Shown: piece after piece, positions 1 through 9,392 of the stretch
How the letters are laid out: each line of letters starts with the position of its first letter
Position numbering within the stretch: position 1 is the stretch's first letter
Position numbers and translations under genes: made by a program
Notes under the pieces: model-generated
Seen by the model: the letters and a program-made list of their open reading frames with translations, nothing else
Told to the model about the DNA's origin: nothing
Databases searched by the model: none
Assembly: GCA_016716605.1 (NCBI GenBank)
Contig: JADJWA010000001.1
Span: 2,805,684-2,869,683, forward strand
From: Flavobacteriales bacterium
GTDB taxonomy: Bacteria > Bacteroidota > Bacteroidia > Flavobacteriales_F > PHOS-HE28
Direction of reading: 5' to 3'
DNA: 64,000 bases

Positions 1-168
1 GGAGGTTGGAAGCGTAGCGTGCTAAAGGAATTGGAGGCTGCCGATGTATACCTCCACCCGACCTATGCTCGGGCCGTGTAAGCACTTAGTTGAATTTGGG
101 AGCTTCCACAGCGCCCGTCACAACGTAACGTCCCAAGGCTTAGAGTGTGCAACTCCTAGAGGATTCCT

Positions 169-993
169 TTGGTGTTGGAACTGCAATCTTTTTCTGATAG
201 ACTTGACAGCACAGGATCGACGGATTTTATGGCAACCACCCCAAAAAAGCGAGTATCAGGTCATGGACGGCGTTTTCTACGGGATGCGTTTATCCATGAT
301 CAAAGTGTGCTACGCGCTGAGCTAGAACGCGCACGATTCAGCATCACGCACCCCACGCGCAAGGGGGAAGTTTCCGAGAAGCATGTTATTGATACCCTGC
401 GACGCTACCTACCCCAGAGGTATTGCGTTGAATCCGCTATCATTATCGACAGTGCGGGGAGAACCAGTGATGCAATCGATGTGGTGATTTTCGATCGCCA
501 TTTTACGCCGACGTTGCTTGACCAAAAGAGTTTTGCCTATGTGCCTGCGGAAGCGGTCTATGCGGTCTTCGAGGTCAAGCAGGACCTCAATGGCCCAATG
601 CTCGCATACGCATCTGAAAAGGCCGCTTCCGTCCGAAGAATGAAGCGAACTTCAGTTGGGTACATGAATGGAGATGTCCCGATGAAGCCCAAACCCCAGA
701 TCGACATCATCGCTGGTATTGTTGCCCTAGAGGCGACACTTACCCTGCAAACGGCGAAGGGGTTGGCAAAGGCATTGCTCCCCCTCGCGGGTGACGGCAT
801 CTTGAATTGCGGTCTGGCGGTGAAAGGTTGCTCCTTCGACACCTTTACTGCTGGGACCATCACGATAAGTAACCAAGAGACGGCCTTGATGCATTTCCTT
901 TTCAGACTGCTAGGACGCCTTCAGATCGTAGGCAGTGTTCCAGCGGTCAATTGGGCTGAGTATGCCAAGGTGCTCACTGTGCGCAAATCATAA
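169..993 (+). CDS. nucC: CBASS effector, NucC-like PD-(D/E)xK endonuclease (alternative start ATG 229)
   Basis: 274-aa ORF with motifs LPQRY, IDVVIFDR...VPAEAVYAVFEVKQ...ASVRRMKRTS that fit a restriction-endonuclease-like D...(D/E)xK core and the NucC-family pattern. It lies 11 nt upstream of the CD-NTase on the same strand. Confidence 0.55.
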   Translation: MVLELQSFSDRLDSTGSTDFMATTPKKRVSGHGRRFLRDAFIHDQSVLRAELERARFSITHPTRKGEVSEKHVIDTLRRYLPQRYCVESAIIIDSAGRTSDAIDVVIFDRHFTPTLLDQKSFAYVPAEAVYAVFEVKQDLNGPMLAYASEKAASVRRMKRTSVGYMNGDVPMKPKPQIDIIAGIVALEATLTLQTAKGLAKALLPLAGDGILNCGLAVKGCSFDTFTAGTITISNQETALMHFLFRLLGRLQIVGSVPAVNWAEYAKVLTVRKS

Positions 994-1004
994 CACTGCC
1001 TCCC

Positions 1005-2039
1005 ATGTTCGACTACGATAAGCAGATTAGGGCATACCAGAATGAGAAAGTCCGCATCTCGGACAACGCCCGTAGGGACTTGCTTGACAAGCGAAAGGCA
1101 AACCGAGATCGCTTGATCGCGAACCTTGGGGGCACGTATACCCTCGGGGAGAACCATTTCATTCCGCAAGGGTCGGTTACTATCTGGACCGCTATTCAAG
1201 CCGCTGATATGAACTACGACATTGATGATGGCGTCTGGTTCCATGCGTCTGAACTTATCGTCAAGGAGGGGAGCGGCGAACGAGAGCTTGTGCCGATCGA
1301 GCTACAACGAATTGTTTGCCATGCCTTGCAGGATGCCCGATTCAAGAAGCAGCCAGAGGTTCATCACAATTGCGTTCGTGTGTTCTACAATGAAGGGCAC
1401 CATGTTGACGTCCCTTGCTTCCGCTGGACGAACGATGGAACGACCTCTGGGAAGCTTGAACTGGCGGCGACAGGAAATAAATGGAGATTGTCCGATCCTA
1501 CTCAAATCAACAACTGGTTCAACGGTAGGGTTGAAGCACTGAACCTGCTGCGCTCGGACGCTGGTAAACAACTTCGACGTCTTGTTCGCTTGTTGAAGCG
1601 CTTTGCGACAAGTCGCGGGGATGCGTGGGACATGCCCAGTGGTTTGAAGCTGATGATGCTGGCCGAAGAGTGTCTCAACCATTCCTTCGAGCGAGATGAT
1701 GAAGCGTTCCACATCTTGCTCAAGAACCTGCGCGTTCGACTTTCGACTTCGTTGGTGGTGCTCAATCGAGCACAACAGATGCCGCAGGATCCTTTGACCA
1801 AAGGACTTGACGATGGCAACATGCAGCAGCTCAGACTCCATGTTGGTGAGGCGCTTGATCACTTGGCCATCACTGACAATCCCCAGTGCAACAAGAAATC
1901 TGCGAGAGAGGCTTGGGATTGGGTGTTCCAGTCTGATGCGTTCTTCGACGATTTTGACAGCGGTGACGATTCAGGTTCCATCGCTTCCTCTGCACCGAAT
2001 AAGCCCTTTGAGAAAGCTACGGCTACGAGGTGGGCGTAG
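1005..2039 (+). CDS. cGAS/DncV-like nucleotidyltransferase (CD-NTase) of CBASS
   Basis: N-terminal long helix, then QGSVTIWTAIQAADMNYDIDDGV (GS...[DE]h[DE]h nucleotidyltransferase motif) and a downstream HHVDVP third acidic residue. The C-terminus ends in Ala. The gene overlaps the Cap2 start. Confidence 0.7.
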   Translation: MFDYDKQIRAYQNEKVRISDNARRDLLDKRKANRDRLIANLGGTYTLGENHFIPQGSVTIWTAIQAADMNYDIDDGVWFHASELIVKEGSGERELVPIELQRIVCHALQDARFKKQPEVHHNCVRVFYNEGHHVDVPCFRWTNDGTTSGKLELAATGNKWRLSDPTQINNWFNGRVEALNLLRSDAGKQLRRLVRLLKRFATSRGDAWDMPSGLKLMMLAEECLNHSFERDDEAFHILLKNLRVRLSTSLVVLNRAQQMPQDPLTKGLDDGNMQQLRLHVGEALDHLAITDNPQCNKKSAREAWDWVFQSDAFFDDFDSGDDSGSIASSAPNKPFEKATATRWA

Positions 2040-3751
2040 TGACTAGTCCTTCACGGGCCAAACATGAACATGCATCGGCAAGGGTTGCTGATTGGATATC
2101 CGATGCCCATATTGATGCACGCGCACTAAGACTTCCTTCGTACTCCCGTGCGTGGGAACTTGAGCTTGAGGTAGGTGCTACTCGTGTTGCGGTTTATCTG
2201 TGCCTGCCAGAAGACTTTCCCGTTCAAGATCCTGTCGTTCTCGTTAAGAATGCTGAGGAGTTCTGGGGGAAGGTGCCTCACGTCGAGCATAGCGGCAAGC
2301 TCTGTCTCAGTTCGACCAACACCGTTCACGGTGTAGAGCATGCCGTTCCATTGGTAGAAAGTGCTCTTTCCGATGCCCGTGGTCTTCTTGCCAACGCCTC
2401 TCCGCGCGACTTTGCTGAGGAGTTCAACAGCTACTGGCCTTCTTCCGATCCTAAGCCTCCCGATGCGGTGATGCTTTGCCGCAATGGGCTGCCAGAAGAC
2501 CCGTGGTGCCGTAAGAACAATCGAGAGATCGTTCTGGGAGATGACAAGGACAGTGTGGATAGTTGGTGCAACAACACGGGGCGCACTTTTGACGAGGCTA
2601 CACAGACCTATCGGATCGACATCGACAAAGAGATGTTGCCCGTGGATTTCCCCCGCGACCTCAAGGGCTTGCACGCTTTGCTCCTTGACAAGGACCCAGC
2701 GTTATCCACGAAGCTGAGGCGAAACGTTAGGAGAAGCAAGGAATACCTCGTCCTTCCTCTTCGGGTTGTTGTTGCAGGAGAGATGAAGGACGCGGTGATA
2801 GGTGTACAGGGCGCGGCTGATTCTCTTCCGAGGAAGGGTGGGTTCAGAACAACGCAAACAGTTCCTTGGACCCTGATTGAACAACGCTCGCCGCAAATCC
2901 AACGGATTTTGCTGCGTCCTGTAACCCCACAAGCAGTGATCACTAGATCGGGCGATGGCTTTGACTTGTCCGATAAGAAGGTCGTGCTTGTTGGCTGCGG
3001 CTCGCTTGGAGGATACTTGGCTCAGATGCTGGCTAGAGCAAGCGTGGGACAACTGACGCTTGTTGATGACGATGCACTTGGCTGGCAGAATACTGGACGA
3101 CATGTTCTTGGCGCCGCCCATATCGGCAAAAACAAAGCGGTGGCTCTGAAGGCAACACTTGGTGTAGAGAACCCGCAAGTGAAGCTGGTGGCAATACCCA
3201 AAAAAGTGGAGTTAGTTCTGAGGGATCGACCTGAGGTACTGAAAGACGCGGACATTGTTATTTCGGCGACGGGTGATTGGCCAGTGGAGTATGCCTTGAA
3301 CTACTGGCGTACATACACCAGTGGTGCACCTCCATTGCTGTTTACTTGGCTCGAACCCCATGCTGTTGCTGGCCACTCGTTCCATGTCGCTCCCGCACAG
3401 GGGGGGTGCCTGAATTGCTATTTCTCCGCAAGCGGACATTTTTCCCAAGCGGTTGTCGATCCGAGCGGCGTTGAGCCCCACAAGGAGGCTAGTTGCGCTG
3501 GCTTCTATCAGCCCTACGGTGCAACTGACATGCTTCCTACGGTCGCACTGGCAGCGGCACATGCTGTGGACGTGTTGCTTGGTAGAGAACGGACTTCGAC
3601 GCTTCGCACCTGGACAGGTGCTCAATCGCGTTTTGAACTGCATGCCTTGTCACCAACTGAGGAGTGGGTGGAACGCTTGGCCGTTGCATCTTTCGGCTGT
3701 GTTCATGAACGCACGATGCCTCCGATTGAAACGTGCGGGCTATGTTTCTAG
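2030..3751 (+). CDS. cap2: Cap2 (E2-like N-terminus plus E1/ThiF-like adenylation domain) CBASS regulator
   Basis: 573 aa. The N-terminal part has HVEHSGKLCLSS (E2-like Cys). The central part has VVLVGCGSLGGYLAQMLARASVGQLTLVDDD (ThiF/MoeB Rossmann GxGxxG) plus Cys-rich segment CLNCY...EASCAGFYQPYG. The gene overlaps the CD-NTase end and the Cap3 start. Confidence 0.8.
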   Translation: MGVVTSPSRAKHEHASARVADWISDAHIDARALRLPSYSRAWELELEVGATRVAVYLCLPEDFPVQDPVVLVKNAEEFWGKVPHVEHSGKLCLSSTNTVHGVEHAVPLVESALSDARGLLANASPRDFAEEFNSYWPSSDPKPPDAVMLCRNGLPEDPWCRKNNREIVLGDDKDSVDSWCNNTGRTFDEATQTYRIDIDKEMLPVDFPRDLKGLHALLLDKDPALSTKLRRNVRRSKEYLVLPLRVVVAGEMKDAVIGVQGAADSLPRKGGFRTTQTVPWTLIEQRSPQIQRILLRPVTPQAVITRSGDGFDLSDKKVVLVGCGSLGGYLAQMLARASVGQLTLVDDDALGWQNTGRHVLGAAHIGKNKAVALKATLGVENPQVKLVAIPKKVELVLRDRPEVLKDADIVISATGDWPVEYALNYWRTYTSGAPPLLFTWLEPHAVAGHSFHVAPAQGGCLNCYFSASGHFSQAVVDPSGVEPHKEASCAGFYQPYGATDMLPTVALAAAHAVDVLLGRERTSTLRTWTGAQSRFELHALSPTEEWVERLAVASFGCVHERTMPPIETCGLCF

Positions 3752-4254
3752 GTAAGAAAGCCCTCAAGAACGCGCCATTGCAGGACTTCGCTCTGCCGAA
3801 CCGTACGGTCCTCCGTTTCACGCCAGAAGTTGTAGGAGTGCTCTCGAAATTTGGCCAAGCAAAGGCGAACTCGAAGGAGGCAGGCGGAATGTTGTTCGCA
3901 AGGTTCGCAGATGGTCTTATTAGCGTTGATTATGTGACTACACCTTCACCCTTCGACTTTAGATCCCGCTTTGCCTTCCGTCCATCCCTTGCTCACCAAC
4001 GGGACGTGATCATGAAACAGTTCAGCAAAGGACTCCACTTTATTGGTGAGTGGCATACTCATCCACAGGAACAACCTCATCCATCGCAACAGGACATACT
4101 TACCGCAAGAGCATGCTTGGTCGAATCCGAGCACGAATTGAACGCCTTTGTTGTTGTAGTCCTCGGCTCCAATGCCGCGATCGCAAATGCTTGGGTCGGA
4201 ATTGTGCGTGAAGAGGATGTTCAACGCCTTCAGGCAATTGCCCGAACGAAGTGA
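3733..4254 (+). CDS. cap3: Cap3 JAB/JAMM-family isopeptidase
   Basis: 173 aa with EWHTHPQEQPHPSQQD, matching the JAMM motif HxHx7Sx2D, and an upstream Glu (EAGGMLFARF). It overlaps the Cap2 stop by 19 nt. Confidence 0.8.
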   Translation: MRAMFLGKKALKNAPLQDFALPNRTVLRFTPEVVGVLSKFGQAKANSKEAGGMLFARFADGLISVDYVTTPSPFDFRSRFAFRPSLAHQRDVIMKQFSKGLHFIGEWHTHPQEQPHPSQQDILTARACLVESEHELNAFVVVVLGSNAAIANAWVGIVREEDVQRLQAIARTK

Positions 4255-4275
4255 ACGTGTCGGATCGCCAATCAG

Positions 4276-5310
4276 TTATAGCATGTGCGCTATAGGGGCT
4301 CGGACAAGCAACTCATGACAAGCCAAAAGCTGACTGGTCATAAAGCTCTCATCGAATGTGCCATCCTCTCCTTGTGCCATGAATGGTTCATCCAGAACAG
4401 CGTAGCGCGAAGACTTTCCACCGATTCGAGCCCACTTCGGATAAAGTATGCGCTTACCCATGGAACTGGCGGCTGCCTGAAGTGAGTTGAAGGTTCCTTT
4501 CATGAAGGCGGGGCCCACAAAGTCATTCTTAGGGGCTGCAATACGAAACGTCAATGCTGGCGGCCTTGAGCGGTAGGCATCGACTTGTAAGTATGTGCAC
4601 CAATCCTCTGGTTCCCCCACCCAGCCGATCCAGAAGCCAATGAAATTGCCCAAGTGGACGTATCCGTAGCCAGCGCTCAGGGTCGCGAGAACAGGTTGTC
4701 GCGCCATGTGATCAAAGCAACCGTACCACTGGTCATCCTTCCACTCGCGCACAGGGAGCGAGCGGAATCGCTCATGCGCCAGATGTGCCTCAGTGCGCAT
4801 CTCGCACCAGGAGTGGAATACTTCGCTTTGAACGCCTGATTTGTCAAGCGATGAAATAAAGTCCACGATGTCGGTCAGATACAACCGCAAGTGCCCATCG
4901 CTCTTTCTAGGCTCTAACGAGGACTTAAAATAAACAGGCAGGACGCGCGATGGGTCCTCGATGTATTCCTTCTCCTTCAATGAACGGAGGTAGCCGTTGA
5001 TCTGCTCCGAATGATCGCTGGTGTAGGTCTTGTCTTCAATGAGCAGATGATGCACTTCACCATCTGGTGTGGTGAGCTTCACCAACACGTCAATGTGCAG
5101 GTACTGAAGCCTGACCTCGGCCTTGTTGTAATTGGGTAATGACCATCCTTTCTTCGCATACAACCACGCGATGAAAGCCCTCCCAACCGCATGCATTCCA
5201 CTTGGGTGGTAGGTATGGGCTTCGTCAGCCCATTCGCAAAGCCACGCCAAGAACGCATCTTGGCTCAGTTCGCTTGTTGCATGACGGAAGATGTTCGGCT
5301 CGCTCTTCAT
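4276..5310 (-). CDS. PD-(D/E)xK nuclease family protein, Rpn/YhgA-like
   Basis: 344 aa. The N-terminus has HATSELSQDAFLAWL, then IDVLVKL...HHLLIEDKT (D...ExK core). It is convergent on Cap3 with a 22-nt gap. Confidence 0.5.
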   Translation of the reverse strand: MKSEPNIFRHATSELSQDAFLAWLCEWADEAHTYHPSGMHAVGRAFIAWLYAKKGWSLPNYNKAEVRLQYLHIDVLVKLTTPDGEVHHLLIEDKTYTSDHSEQINGYLRSLKEKEYIEDPSRVLPVYFKSSLEPRKSDGHLRLYLTDIVDFISSLDKSGVQSEVFHSWCEMRTEAHLAHERFRSLPVREWKDDQWYGCFDHMARQPVLATLSAGYGYVHLGNFIGFWIGWVGEPEDWCTYLQVDAYRSRPPALTFRIAAPKNDFVGPAFMKGTFNSLQAAASSMGKRILYPKWARIGGKSSRYAVLDEPFMAQGEDGTFDESFMTSQLLACHELLVRAPIAHML

Positions 5311-5338
5311 CGTGTATCCTCAACGGTTTCATGCTCCG

Positions 5339-6826
5339 TCAGCGCCAACCCAGCGTGCCTCCGCACAACCACCACGTTCTACCGAAGTCCATGTCACGTA
5401 GAACTTGCGCGGCTTGTGCTGATCGACCGCCGCCCTTGGCGCATACAGTAACGATGCGTTCGCGTCGTGACCAGTCATGAGCGTGTTGCAAAAGGCGCTC
5501 AATGGGGATGTTCATTGCTTGGGGTAGGTGGCCATTGGCATACTCCTCGGGCGAACGAACGTCCACGATACGTACGTCAGGTCTACCAAGCCAGCGTTTC
5601 AGGTCGAGCGGTTCCAAGCAACGCCGCTCCGCAGGCATCCGCAACCAGACGATTACGCCAGAGAGCACCGTGACACCACCGATGGACAGTATCGAGGCCG
5701 ACAACCCGAAGCGATCGGCGATGAGGCCCGTAAGGAGCGCACCGATCGCATAGCCCAGATCACGCCAGAGACGGAAGATGCCGAGGCTTTCGGCGCGTTG
5801 TGTCGGATGTGTATGCGCGGCAATGGTGGCGAGGAAGGTGGGGTACACCAATGCGGTGCCAAGCCCCAGCGCAGCGCTCAGCATGATGTACGCGCTCTGC
5901 GTTCCGATGTATGGCAGCAGGAGAATGGCTGTTCCTTGCAGCACCATACCCACCACGAGCATGAACTTGCGATCGACGTGATCGGCGAGCTTGCCAGTGG
6001 CCAACTGGCCCAGACCCCAAACGGCAGGATAGACCGCAGCTATCGCACCGATGCCTTGGGCATCATACCCTTTGTTGTCAAGCAACACAGGCAGCAGCCC
6101 CCAAAGCATGCCGTCGTTCAGGTTGTTCACCAAGCCCGCTTGTGTCACAGTGCCCAGCACACGATGTCGCAAGCTCGTGTCCATGAAGGGCCGTTCCAAT
6201 AATGGCACAACGCTCTTGGCCGATTCGACGCTCACATGCTGCGTTGTGTCCTTCACCCACATCACCGAAAGGAGCAGCCCGATCACCGCTACGCCAATTC
6301 CAACCTCAAAGGGCAATGGCCGTGGTCCATAGTTCGCGGCCAGCAGCCCTGTGAGGAAGGCCATGGCTGCCACGGCGAGGTAGCCCGCGAATTCGTTCAA
6401 GCCCATGGCCAAGCCACGGTCCTTCTCGCCCACGAGGTCCATCTTCATGACCACGGTACTGCTCCACGCGAACCCTTGGTGGATACCTAGCAGGATGTTC
6501 GCCGCAACGACCCAATGCCATGTTTGCGCATAGATGAGCATGAGGGGCACAGGCAACGCGAGCAGCCATCCCGTTACGAGTAAGCGCTTACGTCCGAAAC
6601 GGCGGGCCAGTCGTCCCGTGAAGTAGTTCGCGGCTGCCTTGGAAACGCCGAAGGCCATGATGAACGAAAGTGCCGCTGCATATGACGCAATGCCGAACTC
6701 CTGTTCTGCGAGAATGGGAAGCACGGTGCGTTCCAACCCGACCATGGCACCGACGAACGCGTTCACGACGACAAGCAGGCTGAACTGTCGCCAGTTCGCA
6801 CGGAGGCCCAGCACAGGAGGGTTCAT
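5339..6826 (-). CDS. MFS transporter with C-terminal rhodanese domain
   Basis: About 12 predicted TM helices typical of MFS. The C-terminal ~100 aa are rhodanese-like (VDVRSPEEYANGHLPQAMNIP...CAKGGGRSAQAA active-site Cys loop). Confidence 0.7.
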   Translation of the reverse strand: MNPPVLGLRANWRQFSLLVVVNAFVGAMVGLERTVLPILAEQEFGIASYAAALSFIMAFGVSKAAANYFTGRLARRFGRKRLLVTGWLLALPVPLMLIYAQTWHWVVAANILLGIHQGFAWSSTVVMKMDLVGEKDRGLAMGLNEFAGYLAVAAMAFLTGLLAANYGPRPLPFEVGIGVAVIGLLLSVMWVKDTTQHVSVESAKSVVPLLERPFMDTSLRHRVLGTVTQAGLVNNLNDGMLWGLLPVLLDNKGYDAQGIGAIAAVYPAVWGLGQLATGKLADHVDRKFMLVVGMVLQGTAILLLPYIGTQSAYIMLSAALGLGTALVYPTFLATIAAHTHPTQRAESLGIFRLWRDLGYAIGALLTGLIADRFGLSASILSIGGVTVLSGVIVWLRMPAERRCLEPLDLKRWLGRPDVRIVDVRSPEEYANGHLPQAMNIPIERLLQHAHDWSRRERIVTVCAKGGGRSAQAAQVLRDMDFGRTWWLCGGTLGWR

Positions 6827-6832
6827 CGTTGT

Positions 6833-7453
6833 TCAGTGTTTTGTCGGCCCGAGCAATAGCACGCGCTCCTGCTTCACGGGTGGGGACCAGTGCAGGTCGA
6901 AGCGCTCGGCGTACTTCTCCAAGGGTTCCAACCGCACGGCGGCGCGGCGTTCGTTCACATGCTCCTCATCCTCGATGGGCTGGATGTAGGGTTTGTTGTC
7001 CTTCCACCCGATCTGTGAGCCGTAGATCTGGAGTTGGCCGTGATTCACCCTGACACGGTCTTCCAACAGCGCCAGTTCCCATGAGTTTGCTTTGCCTTCC
7101 CGCACTGCATCGCGCATGAGCGGAAGGTACTGCGCTTGTATCTCAGGCTTCGCGTCCGCATGCTGGATCACCAAGAACAGTGCTTGGTTGGCCTTCTGGC
7201 CGATCACATCCGCGCCCAGCCAGCCCGCGCTGTCGATGATAGCGGTAACGCGAATGAGGTTCAATGAATCGTGAAGGATCATGTGAGCGACCACGCTGTC
7301 CTTTTGCGCTCCGAGGAAGCCGCCTACGTTATGGCGGTCGTTCTGGTCGAGGTCATGGATGCGTTCCAATTGGATGCGTAGCCCCTCCGCACCACTTTGG
7401 GCGTTGGCCGATGCGCTGGCGATGAGGGTGGTGATGAGGAGTAGGGGGCGCAT
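6833..7453 (-). CDS. secreted hypothetical protein
   Basis: Signal peptide MRPLLLITTLIASASANAQ. No recognisable catalytic motifs. The start is chosen at the internal Met of ORF 6833..7480. Confidence 0.45.
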   Translation of the reverse strand: MRPLLLITTLIASASANAQSGAEGLRIQLERIHDLDQNDRHNVGGFLGAQKDSVVAHMILHDSLNLIRVTAIIDSAGWLGADVIGQKANQALFLVIQHADAKPEIQAQYLPLMRDAVREGKANSWELALLEDRVRVNHGQLQIYGSQIGWKDNKPYIQPIEDEEHVNERRAAVRLEPLEKYAERFDLHWSPPVKQERVLLLGPTKH

Positions 7454-7502
7454 ATTGTTCAAAGGAACGAACGGCAGCATTGATTGTGATGTTCGCTATT
7501 TG

Positions 7503-9392
7503 TCAGTTCCTTAAGCGAGTTGTCCACCGCATCAACTGCAAACTGGTCATGATGACGAGCAGCGTAACTCCTACGTCCGCAGCAATGGCCAAAACAAGAT
7601 TACTCTTGCCGAAGAAGGCCAGTGCGAGGAAGATGGCCTTTACGATAATCGCCATCCCCGTATTGAAACGGATGCGCTTCAAGGTAGCGCGGGAGAGTTG
7701 GATGAGGTAGGGGATGAGTCGAAGGTCATCGTTCATGAGCGCCACGCCAGCCGTTTCAATGGCGGTGTCGCTGCCCAATGCACCCATGGCAATGCCGACG
7801 GTCGCGGTGGCCAATGCAGGCGCGTCGTTCACCCCGTCGCCTACGTGTGCAGCTGGTCCAGTCGTTCGTTGCAGGTCTGCAATGCGTGTAGCCTTGTCCT
7901 CGGGTAGCAGTCCACCGAAAACCTTGGTGATGCCCACCTGTGCTGCGACGTGCTCGGCGGCTTGTTGGTTGTCGCCAGTGAGCATGACAGGCTCCACGCC
8001 AATCGCTTTCATGGACGCGATCGCCGCTGCGCTGTCTGGTTTGATCTTGTCGGCGATGCCAATCACACCCGCTACCTGATCTGTGAAACTGACCACAACG
8101 GCGGTCTTGCCTTGCGCTTGCAATTCCTCCACAGCTTTCACCGCTTCGGGTTGCGCCTTGCGGTTCTCGGTGATGAATTCCAGCTTGCCGATGAGGATAT
8201 CGTCGTGATCGCACACCATGCACTCGGCTTGCAGGCCCTTGCCCATGGTGCTTTGAAAATCTCTCACTCTGTGAGGCTCGAATCCTTCCGCTTTGGCTCG
8301 GTCCACGATAGCCTGTGCCAGTGGATGCTCGCTGAAGGCTTCCGCGCCCGCAGCACATGCGAGAAGCTCCTCCATGGTGGTGTCCCCGAAAGTGATCACA
8401 TCCTCGGCGATCGGTTGGCCGAAGGTGATTGTGCGCGTCTTGTCGAGGCCCACCACCTTCAATGCAGCCAGCGATTCAAGGTATTTGCCGCCCTTGATCA
8501 CCACACCTCGGCCACCAGCATTGCCAATGGCACTGTAGATCGCCACGGGCGTGCTGATCACCAATGCGCATGGGCAGGCGATCACCAGCACGGTGATGGC
8601 CTGTTTCAACCATACATCGAAAGGCAGCCCCATGACGAGCACGGGCACCACTACCAAGCCTAGTGCAATGATTAATACGCATGGTGTGTAGATACGCGCG
8701 AAACGCTCGATGAACTGTTGGGTGACGCTGCGGTTCGTCTGGGCTTGGAAAGTGAGTTGAACGATACGTGAAAGCGTAGTATCGCTGTTCGTGCGCGTGG
8801 TGCGGATCTCCAATACCCCCTGCTTGTTCAAAGTGCCACCGAACACCTTGTCATCGGCACGTTTGTCCTTCGGCAATGGCTCGCCTGTTATGGTCGATTC
8901 GTCCACGCTGCTGTGACCATCCACCACGACGCCATCCAACGGGATCATCTCGCCCGACTTCACCAAGAGCACGCTGCCCAGAGGTACTTGATCAATGGGA
9001 ACGGGCTGGGATGTTCCTTTCACAAGCACCGTCTTTGGCATGCTGCTCACGAGCTTGTCCAGCGCACTTTTGCTCTGCTCGATGCCGATGTCTTCGAGCT
9101 TTTCGCCGAGCACGTAGAGCGTGATCACCACGGCCGCTTCGGGATACTCGCCGAGGTAGAAGGCCCCGATCACAGCGATCACCATGAGCAGGTTGATGCT
9201 GCTGAACCGCAGCGCGATCATTGCTTTCAGTCCTTTCCAGAGCACCTGCCAGCCTACGGCCAATACGAATGCGCCGAACAGGATGGGTGCCCATGGCATC
9301 GGCAGGTCGATGCCCATGAGTGATAGCACTTCGAGGGTGATCACCACCGCGACGGCCGCTAGTAGCAACAGGAACTTCTTGTCCTTCATCAT
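7503..9392 (-). CDS. heavy-metal translocating P1B-type ATPase (Zn/Cd/Pb type)
   Basis: TM CPC motif (ACPCALVISTP), phosphorylation-site region GLDKTRTITFG (DKTGT with Gly to Arg), hinge GDGVNDAPAL. It has no N-terminal HMA domain. Confidence 0.8.
   Translation of the reverse strand: MMKDKKFLLLLAAVAVVITLEVLSLMGIDLPMPWAPILFGAFVLAVGWQVLWKGLKAMIALRFSSINLLMVIAVIGAFYLGEYPEAAVVITLYVLGEKLEDIGIEQSKSALDKLVSSMPKTVLVKGTSQPVPIDQVPLGSVLLVKSGEMIPLDGVVVDGHSSVDESTITGEPLPKDKRADDKVFGGTLNKQGVLEIRTTRTNSDTTLSRIVQLTFQAQTNRSVTQQFIERFARIYTPCVLIIALGLVVVPVLVMGLPFDVWLKQAITVLVIACPCALVISTPVAIYSAIGNAGGRGVVIKGGKYLESLAALKVVGLDKTRTITFGQPIAEDVITFGDTTMEELLACAAGAEAFSEHPLAQAIVDRAKAEGFEPHRVRDFQSTMGKGLQAECMVCDHDDILIGKLEFITENRKAQPEAVKAVEELQAQGKTAVVVSFTDQVAGVIGIADKIKPDSAAAIASMKAIGVEPVMLTGDNQQAAEHVAAQVGITKVFGGLLPEDKATRIADLQRTTGPAAHVGDGVNDAPALATATVGIAMGALGSDTAIETAGVALMNDDLRLIPYLIQLSRATLKRIRFNTGMAIIVKAIFLALAFFGKSNLVLAIAADVGVTLLVIMTSLQLMRWTTRLRN

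Follow-up and report, generated by a model that had tools for sequence, protein, structure and literature searches.

Four co-directional genes at the start of a 64,000-nucleotide stretch of DNA from a Flavobacteriales metagenome-assembled genome (MAG), a stretch that we call the window, raise the question of whether a NucC-family endonuclease, a CD-NTase, and the conjugation proteins Cap2 and Cap3 make up a working defense system and, if they do, which nucleotide carries the signal from the cyclase to the nuclease. Judging from homology and gene arrangement, we consider it very probable that they encode an intact type II CBASS (a signaling system against phage that is based on cyclic oligonucleotides) that would act by abortive infection, in the order NucC, CD-NTase, Cap2, Cap3. 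The operon represents a well-understood kind of system. It is mildly unusual in that a clade-B-like cyclase accompanies NucC and in that the NucC belongs to a subclade without the His/Tyr latch. Upstream coordinates refer to L081, 100%-identical metagenome contigs in which a window coordinate is the L081 coordinate minus 8996.

In positions 1–5310 of the window, a single convergent gene comes after the four + strand genes. The parts of the operon are these:

229..993, + strand: NucC-family effector endonuclease, 254 residues; the open reading frame opens with TTG at 169, and ATG 229 is the likely start
1005..2039, + strand: CD-NTase (cGAS/DncV-like cyclase), 344 residues, clade-B-like
2030..3751, + strand: Cap2, an E2-E1 fusion, 573 residues, GTG start
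3742..4254, + strand: Cap3, a JAB/JAMM isopeptidase, 170 residues; the open reading frame opens with GTG at 3733, and the called start is ATG 3742
82..228, + strand: upstream intergenic region, presumed promoter region, between the stop codon of a TIR gene (79–81) and the NucC ATG at 229

The ATG at 229 is the likely start of NucC because gene callers give a 254-residue protein on L081 and homologs have about 250 residues; the form annotated by NCBI has 272. In sibling strains, the called Cap2 has 570 residues and begins with the final base of the cyclase gene (L083:8573–10285 and L084:7569–9281), and Cap3 is called with 167 residues (L083/L084) compared with 170 in the window. These differing calls leave an uncertainty of a few codons in where Cap2 and Cap3 begin. 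The original prediction, made from the DNA letters and a list of open reading frames, described a complete type II CBASS operon of four + strand genes joined by overlapping stops and starts. The genes lie where it placed them, and family models confirm all four component assignments far beyond chance. The overlaps hold for two junctions, with CD-NTase/Cap2 and Cap2/Cap3 sharing 10 nt each, but not for NucC/CD-NTase, where there is a gap of 11 nt. The putatively nucleotide-activated effector is in the same operon as the cyclase, 11 nt upstream of its gene and on the same strand.

The identity of the effector is well established by both sequence and predicted fold (values in parentheses are E-values unless otherwise stated). 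The PADLOC NucC effector model matches the protein (1.1e-78), as does Pfam DUF6602 (6.6e-30). In phmmer comparisons with all solved NucC sequences, that of V. metoecus included, the matches range from 3.8e-61 to 4.3e-34; Serratia NucC (7ZGV) is the best (3.8e-61), and the NucC enzymes of Pseudomonas aeruginosa (Pa; 1.2e-38) and Escherichia coli (Ec; 1.6e-37) are also found. An AlphaFold monomer model with a mean predicted local distance difference test (pLDDT) score of 89.9 aligns to NucC crystal structures in Foldseek with template modeling (TM) scores of 0.75–0.92 and E-values of about 1e-21 to 1e-25, and the next matches are the restriction enzymes NgoMIV and SgrAI, at 0.01 or worse. The original prediction of a NucC-type effector had been made to depend on similarity to NucC or PD-(D/E)xK folds, and the predicted fold is that of NucC. 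The active site reads I83-D84-x30-E115-V116-K117, with Val replacing the middle Ala of the published motif, IDx30EAK (10.1101/694703), and 38 homologs keep the D, E, and K without exception. The protein is 100% identical to IPM12_11345 over 99% of the query. Four nucleotide pocket residues of Ec NucC were mapped onto the window protein: R53 corresponds to R64, Y81 to F92, T226 to S236, and V227 to V237. The phosphate-binding Arg (R64) and V237 are conserved, and the aromatic F92 and the hydroxyl-bearing S236 are conservative changes. Phe at the Ec Y81 position is shared with the three closest relatives, whereas Ser at the Ec T226 position is seen in the window NucC alone, the same three relatives keeping Thr.

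The second gene encodes a CD-NTase with a complete catalytic set. The predicted GS...DIDD motif is present as G56-S57 and D72-I-D74-D, and the acidic triad on which that call had been made to depend consists of D72, D74, and D135; none of G56, S57, D72, D74, and D135 varies among 39 homologs. The PADLOC cyclase model (3.3e-87) and Pfam DncV-like_NTFase (6e-16) both match, and a match to the NCBIfam family "CBASS cGAMP synthase" falls below the equivalog cut-off. In an AlphaFold-type model (pLDDT 88.8), the top fold matches are all solved CD-NTases, of which Foldseek ranks BfCdnB first (TMt 0.85), followed by DwCdnB. When the family profile of the cyclase is compared with solved enzymes, BfCdnB (B04, 7LJO) scores 4.6e-28, DwCdnB 8e-15, DncV 2.7e-8, CdnG 1.6e-4, and CdnC 5e-3, with the CdnB structures also ahead of CdnD. 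An assignment to clade B is provisional because the identity is only 20–24% and the enzyme was placed by nearest solved structure without a reference tree.

Cap2 matches the PADLOC E1-E2 model over residues 12–572 (2.2e-115) and contains the Pfam domains Prok-E2_B (residues 43–140; 2.3e-7) and ThiF (residues 312–536; 1.1e-26). The E2 cysteine and the ThiF GxGxxG motif that had been recognized in it are C92, at the end of the E2 motif PHVEHSGKLC, and the glycine-rich G322-C-G-S-L-G-G (GCGSLGG, 322–328); D346, R357, and two CxxC pairs are present as well. Among seven Cap2 proteins of NucC-type II loci, the invariant residues are H84, C92, G322/G324, D346, R357, C460xxC463, and C569. A further cysteine, C489, lies on the crossover segment and is a candidate for the E1 catalytic Cys. 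The nearest solved chain, E. cloacae Cap2 (7TO3; 3.5e-20 with the family profile), aligns over the adenylation domain only; the E1 and E2 cysteines did not map onto its C548 and C109 and are assigned by family conservation only. Cap3 matches PADLOC JAB (3.7e-44), Pfam Prok-JAB (2.1e-11), and the solved relative 9ILD (7.9e-12), and its JAMM residues, E46 and H105-T-H107-x7-S115-x2-D118, include the HxHx7Sx2D motif exactly as it had been described. The NCBIfam Cap3 match (1.2e-17) lies under its curated cut-off, and this result, together with that for the cyclase, marks the two proteins as diverged members of their families.

The C terminus of the cyclase links it to the conjugation proteins. 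Type II CD-NTases carry an extended disordered C-terminal tail (Ledvina et al., 10.1101/2022.03.31.486616), and residues 323–344 of the modeled cyclase have pLDDT values below 50 and are predicted to be disordered, the protein ending in ...KPFEKATATRWA (terminal ATRWA, Ala344). Jenson et al. (2023) found a C-terminal Gly or Ala only in cyclases of full Cap2 plus Cap3 operons and no C-terminal conservation outside them, and the E. cloacae cyclase ends in Ala (PMC10097602). The terminal Ala to which the original prediction drew attention is thus a documented terminus for a Cap2 substrate (PMC10097602). Among the relatives that we fetched, R[F/Y/L]G is the ending of all five cyclases with Cap2 and Cap3, and other termini are seen where full Cap2/Cap3 is lacking. 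Cyclases paired with an E2-only partner (L001–L067; P0137–P0236) share a highly conserved motif near the end, [P/A]H[K/R/S]FYG[D/E], and beyond it have about 1–8 residues of variable sequence.

Characterized homologs suggest how these components could act together. The E1 domain of Cap2 would adenylate Ala344 on the disordered tail of the cyclase, which would then pass through thioester intermediates, formed with the E1 Cys, for which C489 is a candidate, and with C92 of the E2 domain, and be conjugated to a cellular target, leaving the cyclase primed. The JAMM metalloprotease Cap3 would strip the conjugate and restrain the system. Upon phage infection, the primed CD-NTase would make a cyclic oligonucleotide, most likely 3',3',3'-cyclic tri-AMP (cA3). 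This ligand would enter the three-fold pocket of the NucC trimer and give rise to a hexamer that would cut double-stranded DNA non-specifically, and the cell would die before the release of phage progeny. We infer cA3 as the product because characterized NucC enzymes respond to it: Lau et al. report that cAAA activates NucC, describe the hexamer mechanism, and find that the NucC homologs tested so far all prefer cA3 (10.1101/694703).

The operon can be compared with several known systems that are close to it. One is the "Type II-C CBASS" of Microbacterium ketosireducens, which combines a CD-NTase, NucC, and a ubiquitin-like module with a TIR-SAVED protein activated by cA3 (Hogrel et al., 10.1101/2022.05.04.490601). 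Both are type II CBASS with a NucC effector and a ubiquitin-like module of the Cap2/Cap3 type, but NucC is the sole effector in the window operon, whereas TIR-SAVED is a second effector in Microbacterium. The Microbacterium system is labeled "II-C," a letter that we take to denote the CD-NTase clade, and its host is actinobacterial; the window cyclase is closest to clade B structures and comes from a Flavobacteriales MAG. The type III CBASS of E. coli MS115-1 and P. aeruginosa ATCC 27853 share with the window operon the NucC family and the IDx30E-x-K active site, and their trimer pocket residues are kept or conservatively replaced in the window NucC. Those systems bring about abortive infection by cA3-activated DNA degradation, and the window operon would do likewise. 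Unlike the window operon, they have CdnC/CdnD cyclases and HORMA plus TRIP13 regulation; we saw no HORMA (Cap7/Cap8) or TRIP13 (Cap6) families in positions 1–9000 of the window or in the 9 kb upstream, and the same approach readily detected both beside other NucC genes. Ec and Pa NucC are 33–35% identical to the window NucC in structural alignment and have the H136/Y141 latch, which the window NucC is without. The closest solved relative is the type III CRISPR-associated NucC of Serratia (7ZGV/7ZGW), with 42–46% identity in structural alignment and a TM score of up to 0.92; its activator comes from the CRISPR Cas10 complex, whereas the window operon encodes a CD-NTase instead. The four-gene layout, with Cap2 conjugating the C terminus (Gly/Ala) of the cyclase and Cap3 deconjugating it, is that of the type II CBASS of V. 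cholerae, E. coli TW11681, and E. cloacae. In those operons, however, the effector is the phospholipase CapV or Cap4, not NucC, and the cyclases are DncV/CdnD enzymes of clade A or D.

The pairing of NucC with Cap2 and Cap3 in place of HORMA/TRIP13 had been presented as a departure from the usual association. The pairing is real, but its novelty was overstated: NucC with Cap2/Cap3 has already been described, in Microbacterium, and it recurs in other genomes. Our survey took the best 80 of at least 492 alignment-based NucC matches in species-representative genomes, a sample that is biased toward the query. (A single-protein scan of genome contigs with NucC gave no matches, whereas the alignment-based scan succeeded.) In 33 of the 80 loci, a cyclase of the same family as that in the window lies directly downstream of NucC, in the following contexts:

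5 loci (L024, L041, L053, L056, L063): Cap2 plus Cap3
22 loci: E2-only partner of about 140–170 residues (type II short), PADLOC E2 1.6e-39 to 5e-43
5 loci (L020, L022, L028, L046, L060): cyclase with an AGS-C-type C-terminal sequence, Pfam AGS-C sensor 1.3e-28 in L022
1 locus: cyclase locus ending at a contig edge

With 5 Cap2 plus Cap3 loci and 22 E2-only loci, NucC is found with E2-type machinery in 27 of the 80. In L016 (8733–10268), one of these 22, the E2 domain is fused to the cyclase in a protein of 511 residues. Relatives lacking Cap2/Cap3 were also considered as type I CBASS, a classification ruled out by their conserved small downstream open reading frame, which is a CBASS E2. At the other loci, 24 of the neighbors (up to three nearest for each) are further SMODS-type cyclases, 6 are type III CRISPR RAMP proteins, and at least 10 are bacterial HORMA proteins, which TRIP13-like AAA proteins accompany. 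The NucC, CD-NTase, E2 "type II (short)" modules (Verrucomicrobiota and others, L001–L067) resemble the window operon in their cyclase family (45–56% identity), NucC family, and NucC-first order, but they have an E2-only partner instead of Cap2 plus Cap3, and their cyclases end in a conserved HKFYG[D/E] plus a short tail rather than in ...TR[F/W][G/A]. Several of these modules sit inside type I restriction-modification operons; in Verrucomicrobiota they occur among such genes in L014 (5306–13514), L019 (5667–13539), L002, and L037, the order in L014 being hsdM, hsdS, NucC, cyclase, E2, hsdR. Around a NucC and cyclase pair that stays constant, the regulatory module seems to be swapped freely.

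Several observations weigh against an intact, cA3-signaling CBASS, and the nucleotide product, the conjugation, and the anti-phage defense are all inferred from homologs. In both sequence profile and fold, the cyclase comes closest to clade B enzymes, with 20–24% identity to the CdnB structures. The NucC-associated cyclases listed by Lau et al. belong to clades C01, C03, and D05 alone (10.1101/694703), and the only clade B product found in the literature is the 2',3'-cGAMP made by characterized CdnB02 enzymes (10.1101/2023.07.24.550367), which is not a known NucC activator; the literature search returned no paper on 8YSN or DwCdnB. In addition, the gate-loop latch of Ec NucC, H136/Y141, is replaced by N147/M152 in the window NucC, and mutation of the latch residues abolishes the activity of Ec NucC (10.1101/694703). 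The two relatives closest to the window NucC share its gate loop, VGYMNGD..MKPKP (window 649–693, residues 141–155); the third closest relative is also without the latch, and H..Y is kept in most other homologs, with a few exceptions. Together with the Phe and Ser substitutions in the pocket, these observations could point to a system of the same architecture with a messenger other than cA3, in which a re-tuned NucC pocket and gate loop would read the product of the clade-B-like cyclase. We think this unlikely. In Serratia NucC (7ZGV), which was crystallized with cA3 bound, the latch positions are occupied by N and A, and loss of the latch is therefore no argument against cA3, nor is the latch family-defining. 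The phosphate-binding Arg is conserved and the stacking aromatic and hydroxyl residues are conservatively replaced, the preference of tested NucC homologs is for cA3, and naming a clade by the nearest solved structure, at 24% identity, is crude. A broader proposal, which we regard as rather improbable, is that NucC is the recipient of signals from a clade-B-like CD-NTase family found in Flavobacteriales, Verrucomicrobiota, and further phyla, a family that E2 or E1-E2 conjugation machinery nearly always accompanies; its cyclases would be either the first clade B cyclic-trinucleotide synthases or makers of a different messenger read by the latch-less NucC subclade.

The boundaries and integrity of the operon can be questioned too. 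A TIR gene lies upstream of NucC, co-directional with it and 147 nt away, and it could encode a second effector of the same CBASS, as in the Microbacterium pairing of TIR-SAVED and NucC. The protein matches the Pfam CAP12/Pycsar TIR family (6.6e-33) and PADLOC models of CBASS TIR effectors (8e-23). However, its best PADLOC match is the single-gene candidate system PDC-S35 (6e-47), and Pfam detects no SAVED, STING, or other nucleotide-sensor domain in it, with only about 95 N-terminal residues left unassigned. Moreover, no TIR family is found among the called genes adjoining the CBASS in L086–L089, and no homolog occurs in the 80 NucC loci, making a second effector very unlikely. That the operon is a decaying, non-functional remnant we regard as extremely improbable. 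What could suggest decay are the below-cut-off NCBIfam scores of the cyclase and Cap3 and the outcome of promoter and terminator scans of the operon, which gave nothing recognizable above chance: a sigma-70 consensus scan of window 1–4404 (L081 8900–13400) found no site in 82–228 and a single match, inside the cyclase gene, which is fewer sites than in shuffled sequences, and the Bacteroidota -7 motif TAnnTTTG had no match in the operon scan. Sigma-70 scans are, however, uninformative for Bacteroidota, and the promoter in 82–228 is presumed from its position. All four open reading frames are full-length with every catalytic residue intact, translational coupling is retained, and the synteny of the module is conserved across diverged relatives.

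By itself, the finding adds one annotated CBASS to a Flavobacteriales MAG, and tools such as PADLOC would probably call the operon automatically. The wider interest lies in its relatives: in environmental bacteria, NucC is often coupled to ubiquitin-like (E2 or E1-E2) regulation and not only to HORMA/TRIP13. The cyclase and NucC pair is swapped among E2-only, Cap2 plus Cap3, and AGS-C contexts, with matching changes at the cyclase C terminus, and these swaps offer naturally occurring variants from which the contribution of the conjugation module could be judged by comparison. The operon could also serve to identify what a clade-B-like cyclase makes, with NucC as a simple read-out.

The window begins inside a larger low-GC defense island. 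The operon has a GC content of 53.3% compared with 61.3% in window 5311–64000, and all 110 sliding 4-kb windows elsewhere are richer in GC (minimum 54.5%, standard deviation 3.0), in keeping with the low GC originally remarked upon. The low-GC block spans L081 5005–14306 (9.3 kb; 52.6% GC). The suggestion of horizontal acquisition drawn from base composition is supported by that composition and by variable neighborhoods in sibling strains and a related genome. A search for island repeats found no flanking direct repeats, no tRNA lies within 35 kb, and there is no integrase among the called genes of L081. The genes around the operon are the following:

L081:8340–9077, ending at window 81, + strand: TIR-domain protein, 245 residues
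within L081:5005–8311, - strand: DUF7830/CoiA_nuc/DUF6035/DUF7829 protein, 593 residues, no PADLOC match
within L081:5005–8311: 190-residue protein without a family, no PADLOC match
within L081:5005–8311: HEPN_AbiU2 protein, no PADLOC match
4276–5310, - strand: PD-(D/E)XK_4-family protein, 344 residues, Pfam 6.8e-4, weak PADLOC PDC-S26 match (2.3e-6), GC 52.7%
5339–7480, - strand: MFS transporter with a C-terminal rhodanese domain (495 residues) and a DUF6624 protein (215 residues)
7503–9392: P-type ATPase

Sibling strains with a 99%-identical cyclase (P0121, indexed in 49 collection blocks) keep the CBASS, and in them the PD-(D/E)XK, MFS-rhodanese, and DUF6624 genes are replaced by DUF3703 and HMA genes. 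The exchange of the MFS-rhodanese/DUF6624 stretch shows that the variable region outreaches the low-GC block. In the related genome GCA_009612815.1 (L086), the CBASS is at the same site in the chromosome, with Cu-oxidase genes on one side and a metal-efflux cluster on the other, and the HEPN and TIR genes are absent. A relative at 67% NucC identity has another neighborhood, with TPR, MazG-like, and SLFN-type helicase genes, and four-gene synteny is kept at 67–88% NucC identity in other genomes and metagenomes. Because the module is kept while its neighbors differ, the four genes can be regarded as a conserved unit in a variable hotspot.

The gene after Cap3, named "PD-(D/E)XK nuclease family protein" by NCBI, is convergent with it, the two stop codons being 21 nt apart. 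It is absent from sibling strains L082–L085, and L086 has a 346-residue gene (P0243) with 66% identity to it, upstream and divergent. The PD-(D/E)XK protein may have a separate, single-gene defense function and share the same hotspot.

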